A stretch of DNA of 56,891 nucleotides, counting the filler, from Jimgerdemannia flammicorona (taxonomy: Eukaryota), in assembly GCA_003990765.1 (NCBI GenBank). It is 2 parts of 2 records of this genome, joined end to end, with 100 filler letters (N's around TTAATTAATTAA, not from the genome) between each part and the next. Parts side by side here need not be neighbours in the genome. Positions count along the whole stretch, not along the records: positions 1 to 28,407 come from RBNJ01000564.1; 1 more part is not named here. One strand, given 5' to 3'. The position numbers and the translations under genes were made by a program. The notes beneath the pieces were generated by a model. It saw nothing but the letters and a program-made list of their open reading frames with translations, did no database searches and was not told where the DNA came from. The first letter of the stretch is position 1. Every line of letters begins with the position of its first letter. This document shows positions 1-56,332 of the stretch, one piece after another.

Positions 1-1231
1 AAAAAAAAAAAAAAAAAAAAAAAAAAATGTGGCAGTTGAGAAGAACAAATTAGGCCATCGCCTGACGCGCAGCTGGGTAGTCCGAAGTTCGATCCGTGAG
101 CTCCTTGAGGTAAATCTCCAATTGCTGATGACTTTTTTTTTTAGATTTACGATTTGATCCCACGTGGCCCACCTCGCATCATCCTGTACCGCCCAAGATC
201 GTCGTGCGTCTGTGGGACGAGGAGGGTTCAGGCGGTTAGGTCTTTGGTCTGCACGGGATCTCTGCGCCAGCTTGAAAAATTTGGCATGCTTGCGCGATAG
301 GTGAAGGCGGCGAGGTTTCTCGACACAAAAGCTAGAATGCCTATAGGCTCAACCTAGTGGCAAGCATGTATCAGATATACGGAAAACAGGTTCACGCCCC
401 CGATGTATGCCAGCAACCTTTGGGCTACCCTACGCTGTGATGGTGAAGTTGAATAACGATTTGCTTTAAATCGACGGATATGTGATATCCTATCCTCTAG
501 GTAACTCGTGCCTCGCCTTTGGCGCATTCGTGGCTCCCATCCACCTCCTTTATATACGATTTCGACTCTCCAGGTTCGTACGAACTGACGGATTGCACGC
601 ATTTGAGTTCCCTATCATGCAACGCATACGCCCAATAAATCTACGTTGTTCTACAAAGAAAAGAGACGAGCCTTTAACACCTTGTCCACAAAGGAAGAAG
701 GAGTGATTACATTCTCCCAGTGTTAATTATAATGCGATTGCTGGATTTTGCACAGGTATTTCTATACCTACTTTTTAACGATTTATAACTATCTTTCCAA
801 TAATAAACTAACAAATCTGGGCACAGGCGCGATTTCGTTGAGTATTAAAAATAATCTCTTATTTCTTCACACCACTCCCTGTCATTGTCGTGGTCAACAA
901 CATTCCATATATCTGAATATTTTTGGAATATCGACCGTTCCACCCATCAAAATCTGAGTGGTCAGCAACACCACAACCGAGCAACGCTTACATTCACTAT
1001 ATAGGGCCCTGTTAACTTTATGCGGGTGGATATATAACCAATTCGGCGAGAATCCCTTCTATTCGGTATATGCTTACAATTCTCAGGTCCTCTGGCATCT
1101 GACGCCTTGTTTTTGATGTAAAAGGTGATGAATTTATTTTATTTTATCCATTTAAGTTTTTTGAAACATTTTTAACTCGAGTATGATGTTCCGAACACGG
1201 CGTTGTGTTGCTGGCAATGGAGTTCTGCCGT

Positions 1232-2167
1232 TCAGTACCCTTGGCCATAGTACCCGGGGTGACCATATGAATATTTGTAGGGATAGTAATAATAATCGAC
1301 CTTCTTGTAATCGTCCTTCTTGTAATAATCATCTTTGTAGTTGTCCTTCTTGTAATAGTCGTCCATCTTGTAATAGTCGTCCTTCTTGTAATAGTCATCC
1401 TTCTTGTAATAGTCGTCCATCTTGTAATAGTCGTCCTTCTTGTAATAGTCGTCCTTCTTGTAATAGTCGTATGTCTTGTAATAGTCGTATGTCTTGTAGT
1501 CGTCCCTCTTGTAATAATCGCTCTTCTTGTAGTCGTCCTTCTTGTAATCGTCGTATGTCTTGTAGTCGTCCTCCTTGTAATAGTCGTCCTTCTTGTAATA
1601 GTCGTCCTTCTTGTAATAGTCGTCCTTCTTGTAATAGTCGTCCTTCTTGTAATAGTCGTCCTTCTTGTAATAGTCGTCCTTCTTATAATAGTCATCCTTC
1701 TTATAATAGTCATTCTTCTTATAATAGTCATTCTTCTTGTAATCATCGTCCTCCTTCTTGTAATCATCGTCCTCCTTCTTGTAATCATCGTCCTCCTTCT
1801 TGTAATCGTCATCCTTCTTGTAATCTTCATCCTTCTTGTAATCTTCATCCTTCTTGTAATCTTCATCCTTCTTGTAATCTTCATCCTTCTTGTAATCTTC
1901 ATCCTTTTTGTAATCTTCATCCTTCTAGTAATTGTAGGGAAGTGTCACAAAAACCGAATAGGATATCCACAAGCGCCCCCAGAACTCAAGCAAAGGCCAA
2001 ATTAACTATACCTTGTACTCCTTCGCCGAGTACTGATGGTAATAGTCCGGGTAATAAGAACCCTCACTATCCGAGCGCTTAGCAATCCCGCGGCGGGCTT
2101 TGGGAGCGGCAGAGGCAGCCTGGATGGCGACGCCAGCGACCAGAATGGCAAGGAGAATTTTGGTCAT
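1232..2167 (-). CDS. Secreted Asp/Tyr/Lys hexapeptide-repeat protein, copy 1 (exons 2167-2012 and 1924-1232; about 282 aa)
   Basis: ATG at 2167 gives signal-peptide-like MTKILLAILVAGVAIQAASA, then APKARRGIAKR (dibasic sites) and SDSEGSYYPDYYHQYSAKEYK. An 87-nt GT..TAG phase-0 intron (2011-1925) joins in frame to (DEDYKK/DDDYKK/DDYYKK)n and the tail VDYYYYPYKYSYGHPGYYGQGY*. The same architecture occurs in two paralogs. Confidence 0.9.
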
Positions 2168-2289
2168 TTTTCTGGTATGGTTGTATTTTGTTTAGTATGT
2201 TGTTTAGTTGGGAGTTTTGGAAGTTTGTATTTATTTTGCTGGATTGGTGTGTGCTTGATGAAGGTTTAGAAGAGTGTGAATTGTGTCAC

Positions 2290-2297
2290 CTTTTATA
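2290..2297 (-). promoter_or_regulatory. TATA box (TATAAAAG) of repeat-protein gene copy 1; equivalents at 5298-5305 and 7896-7903
   Basis: Canonical TATAAAAG about 125 nt upstream of the ATG, conserved in all three paralogs even where the copy 3 flank has diverged. Confidence 0.65.
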
Positions 2298-4065
2298 CGC
2301 GTGGAGTTCGTAAGACGTTTCCGTCTCCTTACTTCCTACATCTCACGGTAAAGGGCGAATTTGCAATGTTGCAGCCATTGGTGTTGTACAGGTGATATAA
2401 CTCTGGCGCGTTCGTTACCACGAAGACATATGCGCCATGTGCCTCAACTCAATTATTTTGTGTTCAATCACAAACAAAGGGGAATTTAATATATGTAGTG
2501 CTTTGCAACTTGGCCTGAGGAACTTTGGTGCAAGCACCACATGAGAGAGCATCAACATCAGGGACTTCAAGATCGGTTGGCACGAACCTGAAGCTCCCTC
2601 GTTCTTCCCAGCTTCAGAATATCAGTCTCAATTTTTGCCATCATATGGAAGTGATTACAAACCATATATCCCGCGTTGCCACACCATCTCAAACATCTCC
2701 ACTTGATATAAGAATTCATAACCAAAATCGCTTCAGACATTTGGGTGTTGGAGGAATGTTCCACAACCTCAAATATCGCTGACACCACACGGGCTCGCCA
2801 GGGGGTTGGAGCACGTAACAAAAGCAAAAAAAAAAAAAAAAAAAAAAAAAAGTGTGGCAGTTATGAAGAACAATATAGGACATCGCCTGACGCGCATTCA
2901 TTCACCATCTGAGTAGTCCGGAGCTCGATCCTTGAGCTTCTTGAGGCAATTGTTGATGAGGTTTTTTTTTAAAAAATCCTGATTTATGATTTGATCCTGC
3001 GTGGCCCGTCCAAAACCATCATGCGTCTGTTGGTTAATGTTTTCAGCCGTCAAACTTAATACGTAAGCTCTGGCTCGTTTAGAGCCAAGGGCGTGGCGGT
3101 TAGATCTTTGGTCTGCACGGGACGTCTGCGCAAGCTGGAAATTTGGCATGCTTGCGCGATAGAAGCGAGGATTCTTGACACAATGGCCAGACTGCTTACT
3201 GGCTTTAAGCAGTGATAGGTTGTACATTCATCATATCAGATATTCCGAAAACAGGTTCGCGCACTGGATGTGGCTGTGATGACGTTGAATAATGGAAGGG
3301 ATAGAGCGTCACGATTAGCTTTAAATCGACGGATATGTGATATATCCCATCCTCTCGATAATTCGAGCTTCGCCTTTGGCACATTCCGGCTCCCACCCAC
3401 TCCTTTATATGTATACCCTACATCCAGGTTCTTACGAACTGACTGATTGCACGCATTCGAGATCCCTCCTACCAATGCCTAGCCCAATAGATCTACTTTG
3501 TTCTTCAAAGAAAGTAGACAAGCCTTTAACACGATGTCCACAAAGGGCAGAAGTGATCACATTCTCCTGGTGTTAATTATAATGCGAGTTCTGGATTTGG
3601 CATAGGTATTTGTGTGTTGCTGAATTCAATTATTTTAGCCATCTTATCCAACAATAAACTAACAAATCTTGGCATAGGTGCGAACTTTCGCCGAGTCTTC
3701 AAAATGGTCTCTTATTTCTTCATGCCATTCCCTGACATTGTCAACATCAGGGCGTAACAATTTGAATATCAATCACCTTAGTTCATTCCACCACCCGTCA
3801 AAATCCGAGTGGTCAGCAACATCACAACTGAGCAAGACTTATACTCACTATACTGGGTCCTGTTAGATATATAACCAATTCAGCGAGAATCACTTAAATT
3901 CGTTATATGCTTTAAAATCTCCAGGTCCTTCAAAACCAGTGTTGTTTTTGATGTAAAAGGTGATGAGTTTATTTATTTTATCCATTTTAAGTTTTTTGAA
4001 TTTTTTTTAACTCGAGTATGACGTTCAGAACATGGTGTTGTGTTCTGGCAATGAAGTTCCGCCAT

Positions 4066-5175
4066 TCAGTACCCTTGGCCGTAGTACCTGGGGTGACCAT
4101 ATGAATATTTGTAGGGATAGTAATAATAATCGACCTTCTTGTAATAATCATTTTTGTAGTCGTCCTTCTTGTAATAGTCGTCCTTCTTGTAATAGTCGTT
4201 CTTTTTATAATAGTCATCCTTGTAGTAGTCATCCTTCTTGTAATAGTCATATGTCTTGTAGTCATCCCTCTTGTAATAATCGCTCTTCTTATAGTCATCC
4301 TTCTTGTAGTCGTCGTCCTTCTTGTAATCGTCGTCCTTCTTGTAATAGTCATCCTTCTTGTAATCGTCGTCCTTCTTGTAATAGTCATCCTTCTTGTAAT
4401 AGTCATCCTTCTTGTAATAGTCATCCTTCTTGTAATCATCGTCCTTCTTGTAATCATCGTTCTTCTTGTAATCGTCATCCTTCTTGTAATCGTCATCCTT
4501 CTTGTAATCGTCATCCTTCTTGTAATCGTCATCCTTCTTGTAATCGTCGTCCTTCTTGTAATCGTCGTCCTTCTTGTAATCGTCATCCTTCTTGTAATCT
4601 TCGTCCTTCTTGTAATCTTCGTCCTTCTTGTAATCTTCGTCCTTATTGTAATCGTCATCCTTCTTGTAATCGTCATCCTTCTTGTAATCGTCATCCTTCT
4701 TGTAATCGTCATCCTTCTTGTAATCGTCATCCTTCTTGTAATCGTCATCCTTCTTGTAATATTCGTCCTTCTTGTAATCGTCATCCTTCTTGTAATCGGC
4801 ATCCTTCTTGTAATCGTCATCCTTCTTGTAATCGTCATCCTTCTTGTAGTCGGCATCCTTCTTGTAGTCGTCATCATTCTTGTAATCGTCATCCTTCTTG
4901 TAATCGTCATCCTTCTTGTAATCTTCATCCTTCTAGTAATTGTAGGGAAGTGTCACAAAAACCGAATAGGGTATCCACAAGCGCCCCCAGAACTCAAGCA
5001 AAGGCCAAATTAACAATACCTTGTACTCCTTCGCCGAGTACTGACGGTAATAATCCGGGTAATAAGAACCCTCACTATCCGAGCGCTTAGCAATCCCGCG
5101 GCGGGCTTTGGGAGCGGCAGAGGCAGCCTGGATGGCGACGCCAGCGACCAGAATGGTGAGGAGAATTTTGGTCAT
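4066..5175 (-). CDS. Secreted Asp/Tyr/Lys hexapeptide-repeat protein, copy 2 (exons 5175-5020 and 4932-4066; about 340 aa)
   Basis: ORF 4933..5175 gives MTKILLTILVAGVAIQAASAAPKARRGIAKR...EYK. GT donor at 5019 and TAG acceptor at 4935-4933. Exon 2 is 867 nt of DDDYKK repeats ending YYGQGY*. Confidence 0.9.
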
Positions 5176-7052
5176 TTTTCTGGTATGGTTGTATTTTGTT
5201 TAGTATGTTGTTTAGTTGGGAGTTTTGGAAGTTTGTATTGATTTTGCTGGATTGGTGTGTGCTTGATGAAGGTTCAGAAGAGTGTGAATTGGATCATCTT
5301 TTATACGCGTGGAGTTCGCAAGATGTTTCCGTCTCCTTACTTCCCACATCTCACGGTAAAGGGCGTATATACTTGCAATGTTGCAGCCATTGGTGTTGTA
5401 CGATATAACTCTGGCGCGCTCGTTACCACGAAGACATATGCTCCATGTGCCTCGACTCAATTATTTTGTGTTCAATCACAAACAAAGGGGAATTAATATA
5501 TGTAGTGCTCTGCAACTTGGCCCGAGGAACTTTGATGCAAGCCCCACATGAGATAGCATCAACATCAGGGACTTCAAGATCGGTTGGCACGAGCCTGAAG
5601 CTCCCTCGTTCTTCCCAGCTTCAGAATATTAGTCTCAATTTTTCCCATGTACAATGCTGACGACTGACCATCATATGGAAGTGATTGCCAACCATATATC
5701 CCGCGTTGCCACACCATCTCAAACATCTCCACTTGATATAAGAATTCATAACCAAAATCGCTTCAAAATTGGGCGTTGGAGGAATGTTCCACAACCTCAA
5801 ACATCGCTGACACCACACGGGCTCGCCAGGGGGTTGAAGCACGTAACACAAGCAAAAAAAAAAAAAAAATCGCCTGATGCGCATTCACTGACCATCTGGG
5901 TAGTCCGGAGCTCGATCCTTGAGCTTGTTGAGGTATAAAAAAATCCTGATTTATGATTTGATCCTACGTGGCCTACCTCGCGTCACCCTGGACCATTCAA
6001 AACCATCGTGCGTCTGTTGGTTAATATTTTCAGCCATCGAACTTAATACAAGTTCTGGTTTGTTTAGAGCCAAGGGCGTGGCGGTTAGAACCCCGGTCTG
6101 CACGGGACCTCTGCGCAAGCTGGAAAAATTGGCATGCTTGCGCGATAGAAGATGAAGGCAGCGAGGATTCTTGACACAACGACCAGACTGCTTACGGGCT
6201 TTAAGCACCGAAAACAGGTTCACGCGCCCGATGTATGCCAGCAAACCTTTGCACCACCCTGCACGAGATGTGCTGTGATGACATTGAATAATGAAAGGGA
6301 TAGCGCATCACAATTCACTTTAAATGCGATATATCCCATCCTCTCGATAATTCGAGCCTCACATTTGGTGCATTCATGGCTCCCACCCACTCCTTTATAT
6401 ACTCTACATCCAGGTTCTTTCCAACTGACAGATTTCATGCATTTGAGATCCCACTTACCAACGCCTACGCCCAATAAATCTACTTTGTTCTTCAAAGAAA
6501 ATAGAGAAGCATTTAACACATTGTCCACAAAGGGCAGAAGTGATCACATTCTCCTGGTGTTAATTGTAATGTGAGTTCTGGATTTGGTACAGGTATTTGT
6601 GTAGCCGAATTCCATGATTTTTGCCATCTTTTCAAATAATAAACTAACAAATCTGGGCATAGGTGCGAACTTTCACCAAGTCTTCAAAATTATCTCTTAT
6701 TTCGTCATGCCATTCCTGATATTGTCAACATCAGGACGTAACAATTTGAATATCAATCACCTCTAGTTCATTCCACCACCCGTCAAAATCCGAGTGATCA
6801 GCAACATCACAACTGAGCAAGACTTATACTCACTATACAGGGTCCTGTTAGATATATAACCAATTCAGCGAGAATCACTTAAATTCGTTATATGCTTTAA
6901 AATCTCCAGGTCCTTCAACATCAGTGTTGTTTTTGATGTAAAAGGTGATGAATTTATTTTATTTTATCCATTTTAAGTTTTTTGAAATTTTTTTAACTCG
7001 AGTATGACATTCAGAACACAGCATTGTGTTGCTGGCAATGAAGTTCCGCCAT

Positions 7053-7773
7053 TCAGTACCCTTGGCCGTAGTACTGGGTGTGACCATATGAATATTTGTA
7101 GGGATAGTAATAATAATCGACCTTCTTGTAATAGTCATTCTTCTTATAATAGTCGTTCTTATAGTAGTCATCCTTCTTGTGATAGTCGTATGTTTTGTAG
7201 GCATCCCTCTTGTAATAATCGCTCTTCTTGTAGTCATCCTTCTTGTAATCGTCATCCTTCTTGTAATCGTCGTCGTCCTTCTTGTAATCGTCGTCGTCCT
7301 TCTTGTAATCGTCGTCCTTCTTGTAATCGTCGTCCTTCTTGTAATCGTCGTCCTTCTTGTAATCGTCGTCCTTCTTGTAATCGTCGTCCTTCTTGTAATC
7401 GTCGTCCTTCTTGTAATCGTCGTCCTTCTTGTAATCGTCGTCCTTCTTGTAATCGTCGTCCTTCTTGTAATCGGCATCCTTCTTATAATCGTCATCCTTC
7501 TTGTAATCGTCATCCTTCTTGTAATCGTCATAGCTCTGGTAATTCCGAGATAGAGAATAATTATTTGCACATCCAGAAAATTTTTCCCATAACAAAGGCA
7601 ACAGGTCAAATTCACAATACCTTGTATTCCTTCGACGGGTAATAATGGTAATCCGGGGAGTAATAGGACTCTCTGCCCAAGCGCTTGTCGAGCCCGCGGC
7701 GGGGTTGAGGAGCGGCGGAGGCGGCCTGAATGGCGGCGCCAGCGACCAGGATGGTGAGGAGAAGCTTGGTCAT
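7053..7773 (-). CDS. Secreted Asp/Tyr/Lys hexapeptide-repeat protein, copy 3, more diverged (exons 7773-7621 and 7535-7053; about 211 aa)
   Basis: MTKLLLTILVAGAAIQAASAAPQPRRGLDKRLGRESYYSPDYHYYPSKEYK, then an 85-nt GT..CAG intron at the same position as in copies 1 and 2. ORF 7053..7601 shows the DDDYKK repeats and tail VDYYYYPYKYSYGHTQYYGQGY*. Confidence 0.9.
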
Positions 7774-8841
7774 TTTTTTTGTTAGTGTTGTGTTTTGTTT
7801 GGAGAGATGGTTGGTTGGGGTTTTTGAAAGCTTGTGTTGACTTTTGTTGAATTGGTGTGCTTGATGAGGGTTCAGAGGAATGTGCATTGGGTCGTCTTTT
7901 ATATGCGTGAAATTCAGCTGTCTCATGGTAAAGGGTGTGCCCAGTGCCGCAGCCGTTGGTGTTGTCTTGGCCACGTAACTCTAACGCTAGTTGTCACGAG
8001 GATTTGGGCTTCATCTCCCTCAACATGAATATTTCTGTGCTCAATCATAAGAAAGGGGGGCTGAGACCTTTGGTGCAAGTACCACATGAGACATGAACCG
8101 TGTCAGCCACATCAGAGACTGCAAGATTAATCATTTCAACATTGCCATGAATAGTATTAATGATGGACCACCATAAATAAACTTTTGCTGACCATATTTT
8201 CCGCGTAGTCAAACATCTCTCAACGATCTCGCTTGATACTCGAATTCATGGTGAAAATCCTACCCAAATTGCTTTTGTTAGAAGAATGTTGCACAATCCC
8301 AAAACCCGCCGACTCAACGTCAGCTCGCCAAGAGTTGGGACAGGCAACATAGGTAAAAAAAAAAAAAAAAAAAAAAAAAAAGCCTGATTTATGTCATGAC
8401 CCTGCGCTGCCCACCTCGCATCATCCCATTATTGTCCAGAGTTCTGAACATCCCCAACGCGCATCCCGTATATGTCTATCTGTTGGACAAAGAGAGTTCA
8501 GGTCGAATTGGATATGCAAGTTCTAGCGGAGGATCCCAATTCGAAAACTGCGTTTAGGGTCAAGGGCGTAGCGGCTAGATATTTGATATTCACAAGATCC
8601 TTGCAAAAGCTGATAATGCACGGCCAATATTGGGCATGATTCAAAAGGTGAGACAACGCCATCGAAAATTTCAGCGGGTCTTGCACTGGTGGTAGTGGAG
8701 ATGCGTTCCGAGGACGCAATTGTCGCTGACTTGTAAATCGTATGACTGGGTTGGAGTGTATAATTCACCCTAAATTCGTATATGTTAAATCAGACACTGA
8801 ACTAGTGACAAAATTGAAAGGCACTGCCTCTTTAGAACTAT

Positions 8842-10596
8842 TCAAGACATTGGCGATTCGTTCCAATGATGCTCCCATACAATCTCCACACTGTCTAACC
8901 TGCCCATACCCTCGCTCAACAAGTGATTCCCGACGCGCGCCCGGCACTCTATCTCTCCCGTCAACCCATCCTCTATCACTACAAAAATCGCCTCCTTGTA
9001 ACTACCCTCCCGCTCCTCGACATCGTACTCCGCAAAGCAGGCAGCTATTTCTTCGGGGTCAACCAAATGACTTTCTTCGATATCACGATTTGTACACCGC
9101 GCGACCCTATCTTTTAAGTACTTGTCTGGAATGTAAGGCAGCGGCAACAATACTATATTCCAGTCCCCTCGCAACACGTCAGTCAGGATCAACGTCCATG
9201 GAGTAGCGCGCAATTTCTTTGAGCAGGCGCCCACCTCCCGCCTGTACTCGGCCAGCATTGTGTTCGCTTTATCCAACTCCGGGCGGATGGCTGCATGCAT
9301 GGCGACTCCACGACTGACTAGGAACGGAACAAAACCATCAAGCATGTATGCGGTTTCCCACCACTCTTCTTTTGGGAACTCTTCACTTGCCCACCTCTGC
9401 ATTAGAGTTTCGTTAGCGTCGAAATGCACGGAGTACCGGCCCGAGTCGAGAAGCAGTCGCGCCTTCGGGATATTGCTCTCCTCGACGGCGAAGAGCATGA
9501 CGAGCTTCCACGAGATGGTGGAGGGAGCGCGTTGGAGGACATGACGGTAGAGGTTGGGGAGATCCATCGATACGTAGAGGTAGTCTTCGGTTACGGCAAA
9601 GTCGTCACCCCAGAGCCAGTCCCATAACTCCTGGTCCTTTCTATCGTACTCGCCGGTTTTGTTGATTTCATACTGACGACGTTTATGGGCCCTGACGTAC
9701 GCGTGCATATGCATGACCGAACGCTCCTTTTCGACGCCGTATTCTTCCACGAGCACTTTCATCAACCCGGTAGACCCGCCGCATTCGTGTGCATGCGTCC
9801 ACAACCTTTTTGTGTTGATTGTGTCGAATTCGCCATTTTCACGGTACAAGTCAAGCAAATATCTCGTGGCTTGCAGATTACCAAATTCGATGGCTCGGAA
9901 GACGAGAGGGCTTCCGTGGTAGTCTAGCAATAATTTGGCTTTGTCGCAGGTGACCAGGTACTTGGTCAGATCGCCATAATCGTTGTGCTGCACAAGTACG
10001 GCAGCAAGGACATTGTTCACGAGGTGGTCCGAAGGGTACACACTCGCACCGTAACGATGAATAAGGTCACCGATCATTGCAAGATGGTAGGCGTCTGGAC
10101 GGCAAGCAAAACGCGCGAGGACCCAGCCGTCGTCGTGATCTACGAGCGCCCCTTGCTCGATCATGAAGATGGTTTCTTCCTCCTTATACCAGAAGGCGAC
10201 ATGCATCAGCACGCCATCGCGAAGTTCGAGAAACTTATGCTGATGTCGAGAATGGAGCATGCGGAGGACGGACAGGTCAAAGAAGTCCGGGTTGTGCGGA
10301 GCAGGGACTTTGAGGTACGCGCGGGACGGCGGCTCCAATCCACCGAGGTGGCAGGCTCCAAAGGCGTTTTTCCAAGAGGATTCATCCGTCTGATCGGTGA
10401 GTAATGCCGACAGAAACAACTCCTCCGATTGACGCACCGGCAGCTGTAGCAGGGGCTGCAGGGCTAGCCATTCGGTTTTGACCCAAGGAGTGTTGGCAAG
10501 TTTGAGAAATGTGTGTGATACGAGGCGCCATGCTCTCAGGTCAGATAGGACGATGATTTCTTCGAAGACTGTTATGGGTAGTTGGGTGAATTGCAT
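8842..10596 (-). CDS. Single-exon protein (about 584 aa) with F-box-like N-terminus and degenerate ankyrin-like repeats
   Basis: Long ORF 8842..10680 with probable ATG at 10596. MQFTQLPITVFEEIIVLSDLRAWRLVSHTFLKLA fits the F-box pattern (LP..v...I.......L.LVS..F). SPLVFRAIEFGNLQATRYLLD and LFAVEESNIPKARLLLDSG resemble ankyrin repeats. Confidence 0.7.
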   Translation of the reverse strand: MQFTQLPITVFEEIIVLSDLRAWRLVSHTFLKLANTPWVKTEWLALQPLLQLPVRQSEELFLSALLTDQTDESSWKNAFGACHLGGLEPPSRAYLKVPAPHNPDFFDLSVLRMLHSRHQHKFLELRDGVLMHVAFWYKEEETIFMIEQGALVDHDDGWVLARFACRPDAYHLAMIGDLIHRYGASVYPSDHLVNNVLAAVLVQHNDYGDLTKYLVTCDKAKLLLDYHGSPLVFRAIEFGNLQATRYLLDLYRENGEFDTINTKRLWTHAHECGGSTGLMKVLVEEYGVEKERSVMHMHAYVRAHKRRQYEINKTGEYDRKDQELWDWLWGDDFAVTEDYLYVSMDLPNLYRHVLQRAPSTISWKLVMLFAVEESNIPKARLLLDSGRYSVHFDANETLMQRWASEEFPKEEWWETAYMLDGFVPFLVSRGVAMHAAIRPELDKANTMLAEYRREVGACSKKLRATPWTLILTDVLRGDWNIVLLPLPYIPDKYLKDRVARCTNRDIEESHLVDPEEIAACFAEYDVEEREGSYKEAIFVVIEDGLTGEIECRARVGNHLLSEGMGRLDSVEIVWEHHWNESPMS

Positions 10597-11639
10597 AGAA
10601 GTGGTGATTGATGCGGGAATAAAGACGAATTGATCTGAAACATGTGTTAGGCAACAGGACCCTGTACATATCTTGAGCACTGCGCCATCCTGTCATAAGT
10701 AATCTGAGAGTTAGCAGCCGCTATTGTTCCGTTGGATGGCGGCTACGACCTTACGCCATGCTTAATTGGTTAGGTGCCGCCACCCAGTAACTGGATGAAA
10801 ATTTGACATTTACGAAATTACCGTGACGTCACATTTCCTTTCGTTCAGACGCAGATATTTTTTGTTTTCGTCGCAGCTACCATTGGATACGATCCCACCC
10901 CAACCGAAATGGCCTGCCGCCTGGCTACAGCCACCAGAATCCGAACGTTACGCCTCCGGGCAGTGACATCACATAATCATTCCTGCTTACGCATGAGAGA
11001 AAAATTTTAAGATTTATATATATACATGTTGGTACCCGAAAAATTTAAATACAAAATTTTAATATTCTGCTGTTGTACATTTGTGAATTCTTATAAAGTA
11101 ACAATTCTACCCTGAATGAGACAATAACAAAATGGGTTACAACTATAATATTTTGAAATTTCTTTTATAAAAGTAACTCAAAAATTTCCAGTCATTACAT
11201 TTCATTTCTTATTTAAGATTGACTATTTGATATTTTAACAACTAAATATATATTCTATTAACTTTAAGTTTAAATCTATAGAGTTACTATTTAGAAAGTC
11301 CGAGATAGGTAGAATAGTTTATTTTTAAAATCTAATAAAAGATAAGCCTTTATTCTATTTTGCCATCGTCTTCGTCGACATCATGTAATCGTTTTCATTG
11401 TCATTACATAGTGGCCGTTTCGTAGCCGTGGTCGCTTTGTAATTGTCTTCGTTGTCTGAAGCATCGTCATTCTGTAATCGTCTTTGTTCTACAATATTCT
11501 TTGTTCTGTAATCACCTTCTTTCCGGAATTGTTGTCATCCTTTATGATAGTTAGTCAGCATTCCGTAATTGTTTTAACGGTGAGGTCCCCGTTTTGTTGG
11601 TTCTTAATCGAGATGTCTCCTTCGGAGCGTCATATAGGG

Positions 11640-11696
<57 letters not shown>

Positions 11697-12003
11697 TGTT
11701 TTTTTTTTTTTTTTTTTTTTTGTGGAAATTACTGATATTAAACCCGAGATTTACCTCTAATCAGATAGTGATTTCACATTTAATTGATGGTAATTCCTAG
11801 GTTGTGATGGCTCTCTATGTACGTGCAATTTGCGGGTTATTTGGAAGGTGGTTTGTTTATTCAATTTCTTCCAGTGGATTGATCAGCACAATATTTGTCT
11901 TTTATTTTTTCTATATATTTTTAACTTGGATATGAAACTAATCTCCATTTTGTCAGCCTATTCGGCACGACGACTTCAATGATGCGGCATATAATGAGAC
12001 GCG

Positions 12004-19699: not shown

Positions 19700-19744
<45 letters not shown>

Positions 19745-21800: not shown

Positions 21801-23222
21801 GTCTGCGACAGTAAATCGAATAACATCCTACGCAATAAATTGACCTTCAATGGTAAAAAATAACCGGTAGATTTACCAAAACAAGACTACCAAAATGGAG
21901 AGACAACGCTGAAGAGTCTATGAAACAGTTGGGTTCAAGAGCAAAGTGGCTATCTGCTCGAAAATTCCTGGCGGCCGCTCTCTCTTCCTCGGCGAGCGAA
22001 ATTGCCTTGTTCGAGTTCCTTTTTCCTGCATCCACGCTTATTTCTTCGGCCCGGGAAATTATATTCTTGCATCTCCATACCGAGCTCTGGGATCACGACG
22101 TTCTGCTACTTCGGTGAGTTCACGGGTTTAACTTAAAAACTCCCGTCTTTATCTCTCATTTCGACCCTGCATTCCCTATTTGTGCTACCACATCCTCCTT
22201 CGGCAAATAATTATATGGACACACCCTTCAACAGCTCAACAAGCCTCTAGCCCCGCCATCCGGGTACCATTGATCCTCAATGAGATGTTTCAACCTGCCG
22301 AACAGAACTGCCGTTAGTCTCCCATACTGTTGGGCGGAACGAAAGAATGCAATTCTAGTACTGGACGCTTCTCCCGAAGATCTGTGCTTGTAGCTCTATC
22401 TCTTCACAGCTGGCAGCGGAGGAACCTATCGCTGTAGATGGTGAGTAACGCCTTGTCATTTTTTTTTTATCAAACTTCTTTAGCATACCACAGAAGCAAT
22501 TGCAGGCCAGACATCGGAAAAACAGAGATGATGCGGAGCTGGGCGGTTTTTTTTTTTTTTTTTTTTTTCAAAATAACAATGAACAGCAGTGAGAAATGAT
22601 AAGCACAAGTGAGCAGTAAATGATGGGCTTGAAGAATCTTATTTTAAGTTGGCTTTTAGTTAGGGTGATGATTTTGACAGTGCGACCAATGCTGGGTCCT
22701 TACAACACCCTCTTGTGGTGTGGAACCATCGCAAAAGCGAGAGACCTGCAGCATCGTTTTTGGATACATGATGCATTCCAGGTACTGTATTCAATTTGAT
22801 TGCTCCCGTCAGTGCTATGAACACGACGAATAATATCTGATGCCAATCGTGAACTCCGCTGACAACTGTCACAAAAGTTCGTGCGACAGTTGCAAGTGCT
22901 CCCATGTGTTGTTCACGCCCAACGAAAGACCCAAGTGGTGACATTATATTGAGCATTGAAAACCGATTTAGTTCATTAATAAATAAACAAATTAACAGAG
23001 AAAAGAGAATAAAATAATATGTGCTGGAGATACGGAGATGAGGTAAATCACCTCTCAATGGTCGACGCAAATTGTGAGACTGCCTAATAAGGCAAGTCGC
23101 ATAAACTCCAGCCTCCATAAAGGCTTTCCCGCGTCTTGCTCTGAACCTCACCTCCCCAGTCCCCTCATCTCATCTACCTCACACGTCCTCGTCCTCCAAT
23201 TCCTTACCCTCTCTTTTTTAAA

Positions 23223-23978
23223 ATGAAGTTCACCACCGTTGCCATCGTCATCGCCGCTGCCCTTGTCGGCCAGAGCCAAGCCGCCCCCAAGTTCAATGCT
23301 GACTGCAAGCGCTTCCACACCGGTATGTTGAAGTGGTATGGCCTGGCTCTGCTGAACACAGCAACAATTGACCACTCTTTCTGACTTCCACATTTTTTTC
23401 CCTATAGTCGGCGCCGGCGACAGCTGCGCCAGCGTTGCGACTCAATACGGCATCACCACCACTCAGCTTTTCTCCTGGAACGGCGGTCTCCACACGACCT
23501 GCGACAACCTCGACAACGGCAGCCTTGTGTGCGTTTCCCTTACCGGCCCCATGACCACCGATGGTCCCTCCGGCGTCGTAGCTCCTAGTGGCTCTGCTAA
23601 TCCTTCCGCCTCGTAAGCTCGCCTCTCCTGCTTCCCAATTTCATTTCTAAGTTTGCCACATTCATTTCGCTTGAATGCGACTGGTCCTGAACCTATCTTT
23701 CCGATGCCTCCAGCAGTAGTGCCAAGCCTGCCTCCGTTTCCGGCAGCAAGGCTACCTCCAGCGCCCCCCCGGCTGCCAGCGCGTCCGCCTCCGATGCGAG
23801 CGCCGCCCCCAGCTCCCCGTCGGAGGCGGCCAGCTCCGCGGCGGCCTCCGCCTCCGCCTCCATCGCCTCCACGAGCCCCTCAACTTCCACCGTCAAGCCC
23901 AACGCTGGTGCCCGCGAATCCGTCCCCATTGCCCTTCTCCTGGTGTCGGTGGTCGCTGCCAGTGCCTTGGTTCTGTAA
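23223..23978 (+). CDS. Secreted LysM-domain protein with Ser/Ala-rich stalk and GPI-signal-like C-terminus, 3 exons (23223-23322, 23408-23612, 23714-23978; about 189 aa)
   Basis: Signal peptide MKFTTVAIVIAAALVGQSQA. Fungal-type LysM CKRFHTVGAGDSCASVATQYGITTTQLFSWNGGLHTTCDNLDNGSLVCV. C-terminus KPNAGARESVPIALLLVSVVAASALVL*. Confidence 0.9.
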
Positions 23979-24303
23979 ATTTGGGAGTAATGGGAGTAAT
24001 GAAAGGGGGGTTTTTTTTTCTTTTTCCCGGACATGCGCGTGCGCACTAGTCCCTGTCTTAGTATATAGTATATCACGACCTGTAATTGTTTCAGCACAAA
24101 TAGATGCACATAATAGAAAATTTCTTCATGGTATCACAAGGCTGACTTTCAAACTGAGTAGGAATGTTGCGTTGAAAAGTGGCAAAATACATGACATCAA
24201 AAAAAAAAATACAAGTTAACCAAAGCCTGTTATGCCCAACTCCCTTAATTCCAATATTTGATCTATGGTTTGCATTTATAACTCTCATCTTTCCTCTCCT
24301 CAC

Positions 24304-28327: not shown

Positions 28328-28367
<40 letters not shown>

Positions 28368-28407
28368 TGTTTTTTTTTTTTTTTTTTTTTTTGTGGAAAT
28401 TACTGAT

Positions 28408-28507
28408 NNNNNNNNNNNNNNNNNNNNNNNNNNNNNNNNNNNNNNNNNNNNTTAATTAATTAANNNNNNNNNNNNNNNNNNNNNNNNNNNNNNNNNNNNN
28501 NNNNNNN
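28408..28507. other. Assembly gap with artificial TTAATTAATTAA linker
   Basis: N runs flank a 12-mer that has stops in all six frames. Confidence 0.95.
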
Positions 28508-31071: not shown

Positions 31072-31102
<31 letters not shown>

Positions 31103-34249: not shown

Positions 34250-36208
34250 AGTCTGTTTATATGTTATCTTAGGCAGTTTATATATAATGTCTTCAATTCT
34301 GCAATCAAAAGTAGGGTGGCATTCTTCAAATAATTAACTTGGGTGACATCTTTTAATTCTCCTAGGCAGTCTGTTCATATGTTGTCTCAGGTGGTTTATA
34401 TATGATATCTTCAATTCTGCAGTCAAAAGTAGAGCAGCATTCTTCAAATAATTAACTCAGATGATGTCTTTTAATTCTCCTGGGCAGTCTGTTCCATTTG
34501 TATGTTGTCAAAAGCTGAATGACAGTTCATATGTTCTATTCTCAATGGTAGTCCATTCATATATCATAGGATATTCTTCAAAAGTCAGATGGTGGTGGTA
34601 TTTGGCATAGTGGTTTATTTGGCATTTTTTCAGTAATTAATTCTTATAATGTTGTCCCTCAAACTAAGGAGCAATCCAGCTATTAACTCAATGATGCAAT
34701 CTTTTACAAAGCATCTATTATTCAATACCAATAGTTCACAGAAATAAGGCTGACAATCAGAACAACTAATTAACAGCAGATGGTATAGAGATGAACAATG
34801 TCTTCTAATTCAAGAGGTTCATAAATTATATGTCACAGGACAGGTCATATCTTCAAAAGTCAGGCAGTGGTGGTATTTGGCATGGTAGTTTGTTTGGTAT
34901 TTTTTTGGCAATTAATTCTTGTAAGGTTGTCCTTTGAACTCAGAAGTGATCTAGCTATTAACTTAATAATGTGGCCCTTTGCAGAGCATCTATTGTTCAA
35001 TACTAACAGTTCACAGAAATGAGGCTGACAACTGGAACAACCAATTAACAGCAGATGGCACAGAGATGAATAATGTCTTCTAATTCAAGAGGTTTATAAA
35101 TCATATGTCATGGAATAGATCATATCTTCAAAAGTCAGGTTGGCAAATCATATGTCACAGGATTCTTTAGTCTGTACAGCAGTCTTGTTTAGTATAATAG
35201 TTCATTCAGTATTTTTCAGCAATTAATTCTTATAATGTTGTCCCTCAAACTAAGGAGCAACCTAACTATTAACTCAATAATACAGTCCTTTGCAGAGTAT
35301 CTATTGTTCAATACTGATGGTTTATAGAAATGAGGCTGACAACCAGAACAACCAATTAACAGCAGATGGTACAGAGATGAACAATATCTTCTAATTTGAG
35401 AGGTTCATAAATCATATATCATGGGATAAATCATATCTTCAAAAGTTGGGTTGATAAATTATATATCATGGGATGGCTTTGGTCTATACAGCAGTTTTGT
35501 TTGACATAGTGGTTCATTTAGTATTTTTCAGCAATTAATTCTTGAATGTTGTCTCTTGAAGTAAGAAGTAACTCAGCTATTAACTCAATGATGCAGTCCT
35601 TTGCAGAGTGTCTATTATTCAATACTGATGGTTCATAGAAATGAGGCTGACAACCAGAATAAGCAATTAATAGCAGATGGTGTAAACAAACACCATGTAT
35701 AACATGATAGTCTATATGGCAGTCCAGCAGTCTAGCAGTCTGATAGTCTGACAGTTGTTCATTTTTTAGCTTAAAAGTAAGGATTCATCTTGAATCACCA
35801 GCCAATAGACACTAAGTTATAATATAGCAGATGCAGAACTTGATGAGTTGGTAGGATTTTGTGTGAGGGGAAGGGTATGTAAAGAAGACTTGTTTTGGAA
35901 TTAAACTAACTTGATCTGACTGAGGTTTATTCACTCTAAAATACTGGGTTATTTATACAGATTTGTGTACTAATTCTGCTACTAAATATGTAGCTAAATA
36001 TTAAGTCTTTTCATGTAAAATTCTCAGATAGAATCTCATGTGAAATTCTATCTGAAATTTGTGAAAGTAATAAGAGTTTCACTGATAATGTTTTAGATAT
36101 AGTGTCCATAGTAAAGATAATTTTCTACACTATACTAAATTGGAATTCAGATTCAGATACTATGATCAAATGTCTATTTCCTATTTCTATTTTATACCAT
36201 ACATTATA
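34250..36208 (-). mobile_element. Truncated copy of the non-autonomous LTR element (5' LTR 36208-35818 plus internal tandem repeats)
   Basis: Reverse-complement match to 45766-47400, including the LTR, the adjoining AAGATGAATCCT(C/T)ACTTTTAAGCTAAAAAATGAACAACTG, and four units of about 275-312 bp at about 34635, 34910, 35221 and 35533. Confidence 0.8.
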
Positions 36209-36498
36209 ATATATAAGTATTCAGTATATAGCTTATATTGGCATTGGTGCTGAAACTAGTAGAACTAGTAGTTGGAGCATTTTTTGTTAGTGTAAAAATA
36301 TTTTCCAAATTTACTTCTATATCTTCTTCTGTATAGATAGGTTGTCACTTTTATAAAGAATAGATCTCTGCTACCACTTTCATTATTATTATTAGTATTT
36401 ACAATATTCATCTGTCTATATTGTTTGTCTTTTTCTTTTTTCTTATAGTTGTAGTCTTACTTACAGTATCTATACTTATCACAGTAAAAGTATTTATT

Positions 36499-39400
36499 TT
36501 ATTTTTTTTGTTTTTTGTTTTTTGTTTATAGTCACTTGGACTTCTCTTTATTATGATCATCTATAATATTAATACAATATCACCCCATCCTCTCAACTGA
36601 TATCCCTCAGATCCTCTTCACTACTCTCCACACCCCCCTGCTGGAGGATAACCCAGTCACCCACCATCCAAATCTTCTTACTACTTTTCTGGGAAATATA
36701 ATATACCATATCCCAGTGGCTCCCCCCACTCAGCCTCCATCCTCTCCACCAGCCATTCAAAATATTCAGTAAAAGTCATTTCCAATATGCCACCTTATCT
36801 CCAATCCCAACCCACTGGCCCTCTCTAAATACATATAACCAATGTCTGGCCAGCCCAATCTATATGGCCAGAACCTAACTGAGGGTCAGCCATTCATCCC
36901 CAATCTCTCCCACAAGCCTTCAGCTGAGCTTACCCCATCTCTCTCCTTCCCCTCTCACCAGGGCTTGTAGCTCTAGCTAGTCTGCAATATGGTACCAAAA
37001 CACCCCTAAAATATCATACTCACCAAGCCAATGTTCAGGCATCTGCACCACACCCCCTTCCTGCCCAATATCTAAACATTTCTTACACTCAAACATACCA
37101 TCTGCCACCAAGTGCCCAGACTGATAGTTCAATATCACATTTTACCATAGAATCCACTACTATACCACCCAGAACTTGGGGGGTAGCCATCACATCACCT
37201 ACTTGCTCCAGAGTCAGAGACCATTCCAATCCCACTCCTTACCAATTCCAACCCTCTGCCAGGCTATAGGCCAAAGGTCCTCCCCTAAATCCTGCAAATA
37301 CTCCATCTCATTGTTGAGCTGAAAATCCTCCACCAAAACACTACCCAGCAGCAGCCTGTCCTATCTCCACATCTGCAGGTCCCAATCCTCCTCTCCCTCA
37401 TCACCCTGCCACCAAAGTCCAATCTTCCAGGCACCATCTACCACCCCCCACTAAAAGCTCTTATACTACATCCTCTTACTTCCATCCATGGCCACCATTG
37501 CCAGCAAATTGTCAGAAGTACCACAGGGGGAATACTGGGCCTCCCACACCCTCCTCATGAGTAGTACCCACTCCTGGCCCCTCAGCTTGCTTACTCTCTT
37601 CAGCCACCATACTCTCAAGCAATGAAGATATTTAGCAAAGTCCACTAAGCCCAGCCCACCTCTTTCCACTGATAGAGTCAGAATCTCTCATCCTATCTGA
37701 CTTTGCCACCCTGCCCAGATCCACAATCTTGCCAACTTAAATAGTCTCCTGACTACCCAGACTGGGAAGTCAAGATGGTATCCCATATACCACAGCTTTA
37801 GTAGCCAATATACATTCAGCATTATTACTCTTTCTACCAAGGATATATACTGACCACCCTACTGTAAAAACACATTTCCCCATGCTAGTAGATGCTGTTC
37901 CCACCAAACATAGGGTAGAAGAGATCCATATACTGAAAAGTAGATCCCCAAGTAATGAACTGGTTCCCCAGCCAGCACCACTATTCCAATCACATCACCA
38001 CCAATGATTCTGCCACCTAGCACCAGAGTTTTACACTTGTGCCCATTAATTTTAGCACTGGAGCCCCTCTCATACTATTCCACAGACCTCCTTAACTCCT
38101 CCACATCTACCAACAAGTTCAGTCCAACCACCATATCATCCACAAAGACCCCCACTTTCCAATTTATCTCTAGAATATCCAAACCCCCAACTTGATGCCA
38201 GATCCTATCCAGTAGGGACTCTAGGGAAAGAGCATATAAGATGAGTGATAAAAGATCTTCTTGTGGCACCCCTCTACTAAGAGGAAAGGTTATACCCCTG
38301 TAACTATTGATAACCAATGCAGTCTGACTGTTTTCCAAAAGACTGATCAATGACCTCCTGAACTCTGGGGAAACACTAACCTGTTTCAGTACTCCCTCTA
38401 GCCAGACCCTCCTCACTCTATCATATGCCTTCTCCTGATCCAGAAAAACCAATCTACCATCTACCTCTGCAGCCTGGGTCTCTATAATTACACCATATAC
38501 CTAAGCCATTCCATCTCAGATCAACCAGCCACCAACAAATCCTCTTTGCTCCACACCAAGTACCTGCTGAGCAATTCTCTGCAACCTAGTCACCAATATC
38601 TTTGTCACCAGTTTGTGGTCCATGTTGAGTAGCATGATTGGCTGCCAGTTCTTCCAATCTTCCCATCTCCTCTTATCCTTGTAGAGTAAGGAGATCAGTC
38701 CTAAGTGCTGGCCCTCAATCCAATTTCCAGACCAAAGAACCTCACCACACATTACCATCATTTCCTCCAATACCACTGCCACCTCAGCTATCTTCTTCCA
38801 AAAATCCCAGAGAAATCCATCCTCTTCTGGAGCCATCCCTTTGCTTGTTATAGCCAAGACCTTGCAAATTTCCTCCCCCCTCACTGGATCCCCCAGAGTT
38901 TCCAGGCCCATTGCTGGGTCCAGATGCCAATCCTCTAGCTGACTCTCAATAACTGAGGCTTCTACCCACCCTTCTTTCTTGCTCCATAGATTCCCCTAAT
39001 GGGTTCTCAGCAATCTCAGAATTGCTGGAGTCCCTACTACCATCTCTCTATCTACATTCAATAGCTCATCCCACTGCTGCTTAGTTCTCTGTGCTTGTAA
39101 TATCTATAATAAAAACCTAGTGGGCCTCTCTCCCTCCTCTAGCCCTTACTATCTCAACTATGCCACCATCTCCTTCAGTCTAATCTCTTCCTCCCTTTGT
39201 AATACTTCCTTAAGCTTTTCGACTTCCATCTGAATCCTCACAATATGCTAGTCAGCTGCCTCCCAGTCCTCTAGCACCCCTGCCCATCTCTCCAGGAGCA
39301 CTGCCAGTTGTTGTGAGGCCCATAGTACCCTCTGCTGCTGCTGAGCACTCTTTCTTTTCCCTGCTTCTCTCTAGTATCTCTGAGCACTTGCTTTCAGCCT

Positions 39401-42282: not shown

Positions 42283-43518
42283 GTAAAAGTATTTATTATT
42301 AAATTTGGCTCATTGATCACCATACTACTAGTTTTGCTCTCATTCTTTGTTTAGCTTATCTTTGCCTTATCTATGTACTCTGTAGAATACTTTTTTATCA
42401 TCTTCATTATCATTGCCACCCAGCCTTAATTCCTCATTTAGGAGGCTTGTGACAATATACTTATAGTCTGATAGTTTACTAAATTCTCTCATAGTAGTAA
42501 CAACTATGTTATATATCTTAAGAAGGTCATATATAAGTATCAGAACCTTGTCTTCATTCTTAATGAGATCTATCAGTATAGAAAGAGAATTCAATTGATT
42601 TGTCAGATCATTGATATGGTTGACATAGTCCCAGATACTCTCTTTAGGCTTTATTTAGAGATTGAATAGTTATACTTTCAGATGATATAGATATCTGCTA
42701 ATAGTGATTATATAAGATCTCCTAGACTTTATTTATTATTATAGTATTGATTACAAGTTTCATTTGTATATTTGAAAGAGTGAACATAATCTTCTTTAGT
42801 GCTTTATAATCTCTTATAGTATCATATCTTATTATTTATATCTATAGCTTTCAGTAGTTCTCCAGACCACATTCTTCTAAAAGATTCTTTATATAGTATA
42901 TCCATATGGTATAATCCTTACCATCAAAGACAGAAATCATTCTCTTTACTATTATTATTGTTAGCACTATTGTAGAAATAGTCATAGTTATAATACTTAT
43001 ACTATTAGTACTCATTCTGGATCTCATTTTGCTTATACTACTTGTTAGACTTATGTTTGTATATCTTATAGGTGTGGTATCTTCACATAGTGTAGCATAT
43101 ATATTAGAGAGATATTTTTGTTTTTGTTATCTACTTTTGCTAGCAGGGCTTATAATCTTTTGTTATAGAATACTTGGAAGATAAGTAGAGAGAATAAAGA
43201 TAGTATTTATTTATTGATAGCTTATATACTTTTATACATATTGATGATATTTATACATATAATGATATAGTCAGACTGTACTACTATATATCAAGTTGCT
43301 ATAACTAAGATATTTTAATATTTCAATAATATTCACTAAGCAGAGCTTATAATCTTTAATTATAGAATACTTGAGGAAAGACAAGTAGAGAAAAGTAATG
43401 ATTGTTTATTGATACTAGCTTATATACTTTTATATATACTGATGATGTTTACAGGATGATATAATCAGGCTGTATCACTATATATCAAGTTGCTATATAT
43501 AACTAGGATATTTTAACA
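42283..43518 (-). mobile_element. Decayed Ty1/copia 5' end: two tandem LTRs of about 160 bp (43161-43320 and 43357-43518), PBS relics and gag. The gag zinc knuckle continues at about 36440-36498 beyond the LINE
   Basis: Each LTR is followed on the minus strand by a PBS-like motif (AGATTATAAGCCCTGC, second copy AGATTATAAGCTCTGC), a G-to-A decayed form of the copia-type GGTTATGAGCCC PBS. Gag-like LFNL.IKPKESIWDYVNHINDLTNQLNSL..IVTSLLNEELRL. Knuckle relic YFYCDKYRYCK*DY. Confidence 0.7.
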
Positions 43519-55950: not shown

Positions 55951-56332
55951 AGCACTTATATAGTTATCTCTCATAATATTTAATTCAAAGAGACCAAAAA
56001 GTAGAAAATTCATATGAAAATTTATCTCAACCAATCTAATAATATAGCTAATTTCAAAGATAAGCAGAATAGCACCTATATCAGTACTAGTATAATATAT
56101 ATATATACCAATAAGACTATTAGAGCCAAGAATTACAGAAATTATAGATGAGGATAACAATGAGAATACCTCTCTAAAAGATAAGAAAAAGTATAAATAT
56201 AGACTACAAAATGAAGTCAAAGTAGATTTAGGAGATTATTGAGATCAGTTTAAGATATTCTTTTATAAATAATATTATATAAACTATGTCTATAAGTATA
56301 TCTATATAGTAATGACTGATGAGCTAGCAAAC

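Follow-up and report, generated by a model that had tools for sequence, protein, structure and literature searches.

A tandem gene family in Jimgerdemannia flammicorona predicted to encode secreted pre-pro-proteins with an extreme Asp/Tyr/Lys hexapeptide repeat

We analysed 56,891 nucleotides (nt) of DNA from Jimgerdemannia flammicorona (assembly GCA_003990765.1), here called the window, and describe a cluster of three two-exon paralogs, g1, g2 and g3, which lie on the minus strand between positions 1232 and 7773 and encode proteins of 282, 340 and 211 amino acids (aa), respectively, dominated by hexapeptide units such as DDDYKK. Positions 1-28,407 of the window correspond to record RBNJ01000564.1; the second part follows after filler and is possibly not adjacent to it in the genome. 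Each gene opens with ATGACCAA, at 2167, 5175 and 7773. When every GT..AG pair was tried that connects exon 1 with a frame open as far as the C-terminal tail, a single solution was common to g1, g2 and g3: a phase-0 intron directly after ...EYK, of 87, 87 and 85 nt, with the frame kept on either side. Read-through is blocked in each gene, by a TAG after the donor GTA in g1, by the TAG of the acceptor in g2 and by a shift of frame in g3.

In g1, exon 2 (1232..1924, with the TGA stop at 1232-1234) is open from the acceptor and encodes 36 D/Y/K units and a Tyr/Gly tail, and the intron (1925..2011, GTATAG...CTAG) has the sole tested donor that gives an open join to exon 1 (2012..2167), whose 52 aa comprise a putative signal peptide, RR and KR pro-sites and a Tyr-rich linker. 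The second gene has the same layout, with exon 2 at 4066..4932 (stop included; 46 units and the tail), an intron at 4933..5019 (GTATTG...CTAG) that is identical to the g1 intron at 85 of 87 nt, and an exon 1 of 52 aa at 5020..5175. In g3, exon 2 (7053..7535, stop included) encodes 24 units and the tail, the intron (7536..7620, GTATTG...CCAG) matches the g1 or g2 intron at 53 of 82 aligned nt, and exon 1 (7621..7773) encodes 51 aa. All three genes have an A-rich context ahead of the ATG, a TATAAAAG box exactly 130 nt before it (2290..2297 in g1, 5298..5305 in g2 and 7896..7903 in g3) and an AATAAA 89-90 nt past the stop (1138..1143 and 3972..3977, both at 89 nt, and 6958..6963, at 90 nt). Tandem Repeats Finder detected only three period-18 arrays in the window, with scores of 499-1117, and these coincide with the genes: 1290-1932 (36.2 copies, 86% matches) for g1, 4134-4940 (45.7 copies, 88% matches) for g2 and 7117-7529 (23.1 copies, 85% matches) for g3. 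Additionally, the window contains exactly three copies of a 35-nt string coding for the start of the tail, where 100 shuffles give an expectation of 0.00.

A preliminary description of this stretch had proposed three spliced paralogs with an 85-87 nt intron, RR/KR sites, a Tyr-rich linker and a conserved tail. Our models recover all of these features at the same coordinates and in all three copies. Its estimates of about 35, 44 and 23 repeat units are close to our recount of 36, 46 and 24 K-terminated units in exon 2 of g1, g2 and g3. Its statement that the true frame has no ATG until the intron is removed holds strictly for g2 and g3, whereas exon 2 of g1 contains two in-frame ATG codons, in MDDYYKK units.

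Exon 1 begins with features of a standard signal peptide: an n-region MTK, a 13-residue h-region with a mean Kyte-Doolittle value of 2.25-2.68, and a c-region A-A-S-A that places Ala at the positions named in the -3/-1 rule for signal-peptide cut sites. On this rule, cleavage would separate residue 20 from residue 21, directly after A-S-A. Downstream of it R25, R26, G27, K30 and R31 are invariant while the residues around them vary, and the pro-piece is followed by the Tyr-rich linker, which reads SDSEGSYYPDYY.QYSAKEYK in g1 and g2. The repeat region then consists mainly of DDDYKK (33 units in the three genes pooled), DDYYKK (15) and DEDYKK (10), with EDDDYKK, NDYYKK, DADYKK, DDYYK and DDYKK among the minor types. 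Units keep their composition rather than their sequence (DDDY, DDYY, DEDY, NDYY, DADY), and several end in a single K. One block, DDYKK-SDYYK-R-D[DA]YK-TYDY, is kept in all three copies and is referred to below as the hinge; it holds the sole KR of the repeat region, at residue 191 in g1, 273 in g2 and 160 in g3. Across the three proteins there are 88 KK dipeptides, and KR or RR occurs only at three conserved positions. The C-terminal tail, VDYYYYPYKYSYGH..YYGQGY, is invariant save for two residues, and its invariant string YYYYPYKYSYGH..YYGQGY closes exon 2.

The composition of these chains is extreme. Taking the mature protein as the chain after KR31, the masses are 33.0 kDa (g1), 39.9 kDa (g2) and 23.1 kDa (g3), and D, Y and K together make up 83-88% of residues, with 25-33% Asp and 21-26% Tyr. 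The isoelectric point (pI) is 4.6-4.8, the grand average of hydropathicity is -2.7 to -2.9, the fraction of charged residues is 0.60-0.68, and the net charge at pH 7 is -13 to -27. None of the three mature proteins contains Cys, Trp or an N-x-S/T site, and Ser, Thr and Pro are almost lacking (Ser plus Thr, 10-11 per protein). Splitting the chains at the hinge KR would give an N-terminal piece of pI 4.5-4.7 and a C-terminal piece of pI 5.3, 7.9 or 8.6 with 37-38% Tyr. An AlphaFold2 single-sequence model of g3 exon 2 has no secondary structure, a mean predicted local distance difference test score of 55 and a predicted template modelling score of 0.11; it agrees with disorder, although as weak evidence. 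The i to i+3/i+4 spacing of Asp and Lys had raised the possibility of a single alpha-helix of the ER/K-like kind, for which the model, itself single-sequence and of low confidence, shows no helix. If expressed, these proteins would be among the most extreme low-complexity secreted proteins that can be encoded, with three residue types filling 83-88% of the chain.

We consider it quite probable, given the patterns of conservation, that g1-g3 are functional genes for secreted proteins, and they appear to form a lineage-restricted family, duplicated in tandem, whose products are secreted pre-pro-proteins. The alternative is that no functional family exists and that the locus is a segmentally duplicated minisatellite of 18 nt, or a set of decaying pseudogenes, in which the frame is a by-product of a stop-free repeat. 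On such a view it is to be expected that several frames are open across the arrays, that the splice donors are weak and that neither a homolog nor a Pfam family was found. However, intron divergence between the copies reaches about 35%, and yet all three retain the ATG, signal peptide, pro-sites and splice junctions, and likewise the frame, tail, stop, TATA box and AATAAA. Between g1 and g3, identity is 79.7% in exon 1 and 87.5% over the last 40 codons, against 64.6% in the intron (with 8 gapped columns) and 72.5% in the 5' flank. Nei-Gojobori counting on exon 1 gives ratios of nonsynonymous to synonymous change (dN/dS) of 0.31-0.42 over the three pairs; for g1 and g3, the proportion of synonymous differences is 0.375 and that of nonsynonymous differences 0.156, so that synonymous divergence is about equal to intron divergence. 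The arrays themselves, when split after each Lys run, yield 106 units of 12, 15, 18, 21 or 27 nt (n = 2, 17, 71, 13 and 3, respectively); 35 of them differ from 18 nt, and yet every length is a multiple of three. Synonymous codons are mixed (GAC 123 and GAT 113, TAC 114 and TAT 60, AAG 186 and AAA 8), and the D/Y/K frame merges most DNA variants into identical hexapeptides, with a ratio of 0.58 against 0.73-0.89 for the other open frames.

Some of these measures also tell against a coding locus. A closed antisense frame that shares wobble positions with the D/Y/K frame scores lower, at 0.48, and thus the frame-diversity test is supportive and not decisive. Of the six frames, four or five stay open through the arrays, and thus openness means little by itself. 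Neither donor, GTATAG or GTATTG, has G at +5, which makes the efficiency of splicing uncertain; the three introns of the neighbouring RRP43-like gene, delimited by eye, start with GTAAGT, GTGAGC and GTAAGC. Taken with the conservation described above, we regard the absence of a functional family as highly unlikely.

The genes sit in a duplicated unit of about 2.5-3 kb. The spacer between g1 and g2 (2168..4065) contains no Pfam domain, carries a poly-A run at 2826-2851 and is 91.8% identical (1661 of 1810 aligned nt) to the spacer between g2 and g3 (5176..7052), which has its own poly-A landmark at 5854-5869 and likewise shows no recognizable domain. The 3' flank of g1 (1..1231) has a spacer-like layout, with poly-A at 1-27 and about 1.2 kb to the stop, and is about 77% identical to both spacers; by BLAST, 231-1695 matches 6080-7531. 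A further poly-A landmark of the unit lies at 8355-8381. From this layout, the first positions of the window probably belong to another repeat unit, and a fourth gene may lie to the left. The four homopolymers (1-27, 2826-2851, 5854-5869 and 8355-8381) mark the same spot in each unit. The spacers upstream of g1/g2 and g3 also share a diverged open stretch on the plus strand (2519-2860 and 8045-8387) that ends in a poly-A-coded Lys run; it has no Pfam match and may be the remnant of a co-duplicated element.

We found that g2 is a hybrid, of g1 type in its 5' half and of g3 type in its 3' half. Identity to g1 is 95.3% for its 5' flank, 97.4% for exon 1 and 97.7% for the intron, against 65-80% to g3, whereas its 3' flank is 95.5% identical to that of g3 and 79.7% to that of g1. 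Within the array the same switch can be seen, as it opens with a g1-type DNA variant of DEDYKK and includes two variants common to g2 and g3 only. This arrangement is what would be expected if the two arrays of an ancestral g3-g1 pair had undergone one unequal crossover. Runs of identical DNA units, nine long in g3 and five, five and three long in g1, point to continuing local amplification, and the arrays would lengthen and shorten through slippage and unequal crossover. The locus is a clear case of a new paralog arising by unequal crossover inside coding minisatellites.

The statement in the preliminary description that no named family is recognizable agrees with our searches. Translations of five exons matched no Pfam family at E-values up to 10. 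A word-seeded HMMER protein search with g1 exon 2 scored 7999 candidates with none at E <=0.001, and the equivalent search with exon 1 against longer proteins scored 32 candidates with none at E <=10. A profile of the three exon-1 peptides, compared with 1.84 billion representatives, gave three matches at E <=0.001. The two that were inspected, P0002 and P0003, are unrelated repeat proteins aligned over short stretches such as ..PDGRRGIAGS.., and the third, P0001, is a protein of 3628 aa that was left uninspected. Scanning metagenomes with the tail alignment produced 599 pattern matches, none confirmed by tblastn, and a degenerate back-translation of YYYYPYKYSYGH had no match in metagenome contigs or in prokaryotic genome contigs. 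Searches of the literature with repeat motif strings and keywords found no paper on such a protein, as judged by titles and the starts of abstracts. These negatives are weak, because the composition correction of HMMER most likely strips nearly all score from a three-letter sequence, because no collection of fungal genomes was among those searched and because the lineage is poorly sampled. Standard tools are most likely blind to such genes, as open reading frame (ORF) finders are defeated by the intron, HMMER by the composition and a published repeat-protein pipeline, considered below, by a branch that tries KR/RR first. The family is unnamed; it fits among secreted fungal tandem-repeat pro-proteins, with a composition that is unusually extreme.

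We favour a reading in which the secreted chain stays essentially intact as a disordered, Tyr-cross-linkable acidic polyampholyte, and would give it an even chance of being correct. Here we take the anatomy of the genes, their composition, the conserved pro-sites and the hybrid nature of g2 as shown, and infer secretion, Kex2 processing, survival of the array in one piece and a material function from the sequence. The signal peptide would be cleaved after A-S-A, before A21, and a kexin (Kex2-type protease) would trim the short pro-piece at RR25-26 and KR30-31, with one possible further cut at the conserved hinge (SDYYKR/D). The remainder, of 23-40 kDa, would be exported near-intact with its 24-46 D-D-D/Y-Y-K-K units between Tyr-rich ends, and may act outside the cell as a component of a matrix, coating or glue. 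Asp and Lys could bind divalent cations and charged surfaces, while the regular Tyr-Lys pairs and the Tyr-rich termini could provide cation-pi cohesion and sites of oxidative cross-linking of the dityrosine or Dopa type. The YXY motif is the isodityrosine site of plant extensins, and the tail holds two such motifs, YKY and YSY. A Tyr/Lys cross-linkable, cation-binding polymer was one of three options in the preliminary description, and of these it appears to fit the sequence features best.

Intact export is favoured because the kexin sites KR and RR are confined to three conserved positions while the array pairs are all KK, because the units hold their composition and charge pattern and not a fixed core, several of them ending in a single Lys, and because Kex2 strongly requires Arg at P1. 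The residues following the KR sites are acidic (S-D-S-E and D-D), and Kex2 sites that are cleaved are described as enriched in acidic residues at P1', P2' and P4' (Bader et al., PMC2515848).

Animal material proteins offer a chemical parallel to an intact polyampholyte. According to PMC9999432, Dopa-Lys (Y*K) dipeptides are numerous in mussel foot proteins (MFPs) 3 and 5, pi-cation contacts let the Tyr/Lys decapeptide repeats of MFP-1 self-coacervate, the dityrosine cross-links of resilin are made by a peroxidase, and sandcastle-worm cement combines polyanionic and polycationic components. As described there, MFP-1, -3 and -5 and the worm cement share with g1-g3 secretion, disorder, short tandem repeats and Tyr beside Lys (Y-K occurs in every g1-g3 unit), and also a chemistry that would allow cohesion by pi-cation contacts, coacervation and cross-linking by oxidation. 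They are, however, animal proteins without homology to g1-g3, in which Dopa formation is purely hypothetical. By extension, a cut at the hinge would release an acidic piece and a Tyr-richer piece, which for two paralogs out of three would be near-neutral to basic, and these might coacervate with one another or with Ca2+ and be hardened oxidatively through Tyr and Lys. We put this forward tentatively, as possible but rather doubtful, and extend the same limited confidence to the suggestion that (DDD/Y-Y-KK)n proteins are an undescribed class of extracellular material whose length is rapidly tuned by unequal crossover in an 18-nt coding minisatellite. If true, it would be a fungal counterpart of the marine Dopa-Lys glues. 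The compact design of acid block, Tyr and Lys pair could be of interest for coacervating or cross-linkable biomaterials.

Several points weigh against an intact extracellular material. The signal peptide was called by simple rules and not by a dedicated predictor. The proteins lack a GPI-type (glycosylphosphatidylinositol) hydrophobic C-terminus, and nothing in the sequence would anchor them to the wall. Features of GPI or PIR wall proteins were likewise not seen, as the C-terminus reads ...YGH..YYGQGY and Ser plus Thr amount to 10-11, with PIR repeats not explicitly searched for. All MFPs are given a pI above 8 (PMC9999432), against 4.6-4.8 in g1-g3, which are acidic because of their 25-33% Asp. 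Additionally, KK is accepted as a possible processing site in PMC6339444 and as a precursor separator in PMC9769878, and the MiSSP8 repeat DSDWRR, with the same layout of acid-x-acid-aromatic-dibasic, is reported to be cut by Kex2 in vitro (10.1101/218131). The last two points lead to a rival that we hold to be unlikely, though one to be taken seriously: a polyprotein of the KEX2-processed repeat protein (KEP) type, in which a kexin or a yapsin-like aspartic protease cuts at each KK and a Kex1-type carboxypeptidase trims the Lys, giving about 20-45 acidic tetra- or pentapeptides per protein (DDDY, DDYY, DEDY) that serve as signals, chelators or aggregation factors, a role suggested for the DSDW peptides of MiSSP8. 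The operational definition of Le Marquer et al. 2019 (PMC6339444), as given there, is at least 3 similar motifs split by KR, RR or, as a fallback, KK, covering at least 15% of a protein that has an N-terminal signal peptide and no transmembrane segment. With a putative signal peptide, a pro-region and many short dibasic-ended units, g1-g3 fit it through the KK fallback, and only so: each protein has 20-40 KK-ended units, and D/Y/K units make up most of the length. Known KEPs, among them the alpha-factor precursors, Rep1/Rsp1 of U. maydis and the ustiloxin precursors, are described as sharing the signal peptide, the KR/RR pro-region and short dibasic-separated tandem units (PMC6339444, PMC9769878, PMC4617103), whereas the units of g1-g3 are separated by KK only. 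At 4 aa plus KK, these units stand at the extreme low end of the motif sizes reported (3-352 aa), and their copy number of up to 46 exceeds that of all but one protein in a 250-genome survey, where the maximum is given as 129 and the next value as 38. Acidic residues follow every KK, as is favoured at P1'/P2' (PMC2515848), and cuts at every K/R run would give 21 DDDY peptides from g2 and 12 DDYY peptides from g1. Yet each of the 88 dibasic pairs in the arrays puts Lys at P1, where Kex2 needs Arg; g1-g3 do use KR/RR, and do so at three conserved sites only; and many units are single-K-ended or of variable length, with a putative core that lacks sequence conservation. For MiSSP8, moreover, the predicted peptides are reported as undetected in vivo (10.1101/218131). 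The published KEP pipeline would probably derive four KR/RR fragments from each protein, enter its KR/RR branch, find no repeat and miss g1-g3; the text of the PMC6339444 supplement (89,120 characters) contains no occurrence of the repeat motifs, and the full KEP table may lie outside it. With g1-g3, nature provides a clean test of the fate of KK-separated fungal repeats, processed or left intact, a question that the KEP surveys leave open. A narrower variant, a dikaritin-type (ustiloxin-like) precursor of a peptide made on the ribosome and modified after translation (RiPP) whose Tyr cores are excised and cyclised by UstYa-family oxidases, we think extremely improbable. A signal peptide with many short Tyr cores between dibasic residues agrees with the description in PMC9769878, but the cores have four residues, each charged or aromatic, and lack a hydrophobic partner, and the neighbours are housekeeping-like (RRP43-like, COP9 subunit 3, BTB). 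Pfam models for UstYa/DUF3328, tyrosinase and methyltransferase had no matches in 105 ORFs of at least 90 aa outside the genes (E up to 0.01). For shorter ORFs (55-89 aa), 150 of the 159 that lie in the spacers, the left flank or 7.9-28 kb were scanned, again with no match (E up to 0.001); the left flank comprises 1.2 kb only, and a cluster farther left is possible. A Kex2 polyprotein or RiPP precursor was among the earlier proposals for this locus, and with units that end in KK and no tailoring domain in the scanned ORFs it now looks weak.

Alternatively, the proteins could be effectors directed at a host or partner, which sequester apoplastic Ca2+, coat hyphae or enter host cells as SP7-like proteins do; this we judge quite unlikely. 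As described in PMC11333574, SP7-like effectors of arbuscular mycorrhizal fungi combine a signal peptide, imperfect tandem repeats of hydrophilic character and a conserved intron that sits immediately ahead of the first repeat. All of these have counterparts in g1-g3, where the 85-87 nt intron directly precedes the first unit, a feature that is generic when taken alone. Tandem duplication and rapid turnover of arrays are typical of effector loci, and repeat-containing effectors are described as common (PMC4617103). However, the SP7 island Y[KR]Rx[AP]x[AP], as given in PMC11333574, has no match in the three proteins, and SP7 is described there as Glomeromycotina-specific with 6-11 longer repeats, in place of the 24-46 six-residue units of g1-g3. 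The earlier account of SP7 architecture was correct according to that source, and the membership it suggested can be set aside, since the motif is missing and the repeat number differs. The closest analogue of the g1-g3 repeat appears, in layout, to be the DSDWRR repeat of MiSSP8. MiSSP8 of Laccaria bicolor and the other DW[K/R]R proteins of Agaricomycetes are described as natively unstructured and lineage-restricted, with a signal peptide, a six-residue repeat (DSDWRR, compared with DDDYKK) whose number varies between members, and a proposed role in hyphal aggregation and the extracellular matrix (10.1101/218131). They differ in having Trp and true Kex2 sites (RR/KR) where g1-g3 have Tyr and KK, and in repeat number, which is reported as 4 in MiSSP8 and 3-17 in its family (10.1101/218131), against 24-46. 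Membership of that group is not indicated, as g1-g3 proteins contain no DW[K/R]R motif and no Trp. Among fungal surface proteins, CspA of Aspergillus fumigatus is a wall protein with an 18-bp/hexapeptide variable-number tandem repeat that is rich in Ser and Pro and GPI-anchored. It resembles g1-g3 in being built on a variable 18-nt coding minisatellite; g1-g3 differ in that they lack a GPI-type C-terminus and contain hardly any Ser, Thr or Pro.

The genes are neighboured by a 616-aa ORF, a BTB protein, a LysM exon, the RRP43-like exosome subunit and COP9 subunit 3, with retroelements farther along the window. Short introns in this region carry CTGAC and CTAAC branch-like motifs, which, along with LysM and the overall structure of the genes, are suggestive of fungal DNA. 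A search of Rfam gave no match, and the Protein Data Bank matches of the RRP43-like ORF were uninformative as to taxon. The 616-aa ORF (8845-10692, minus strand) has a sub-threshold ankyrin match and a single relative among 5.8 billion protein clusters, a protein of 561 aa with 35% identity, which indicates that the lineage is poorly sampled. The LysM ORF (23356-24216, plus strand; E 6e-7) is directly followed by an open frame very rich in Pro, Arg and Ala, which may encode a further secreted protein of low complexity.

A/T homopolymers of 15-54 nt are frequent, with 15 runs of at least 15 nt in 57 kb. Besides those at the duplicated unit, they include runs at 11642-11721, 19702-19743, 22547-22568, 28331-28392, 31072-31095 and 51159-51182. 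Two runs of 44 N (28408-28451 and 28464-28507) are the filler between the joined parts, and a T homopolymer adjoins them. In the retroelement regions (36001-42000 and 50001-56000) the plus strand has 33% C and 12-15% G, with A and T near parity. The minus strand has RVT_1 matches at 38078-38995 and 52536-52835, and 42370-42654 holds a fragment of copia-type gag. In 36001-42000, the C-rich plus strand together with RVT_1 on the minus strand implies that the sense strand of the element is G-rich and C-poor. As A and T are near parity, simple deamination is no obvious explanation for this asymmetry. Between these regions, 42001-48000 is an AT-rich block (GC 21-29%) with tandem duplications of 190-230 nt (43142-43497 and 46638-47080), which may be a degraded repeat or a region resembling the products of repeat-induced point mutation. 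Finally, an ORF at 49528-50202 (minus strand) has a Cys-rich N-terminal half and then a Ser/Ala/Val/Pro-rich stretch encoded by seven copies of a 15-nt repeat (49698-49803), and its C-terminus is hydrophobic; it matches DUF5885 weakly, under the curated cut-off, and, in its layout, looks like a GPI-type wall protein.

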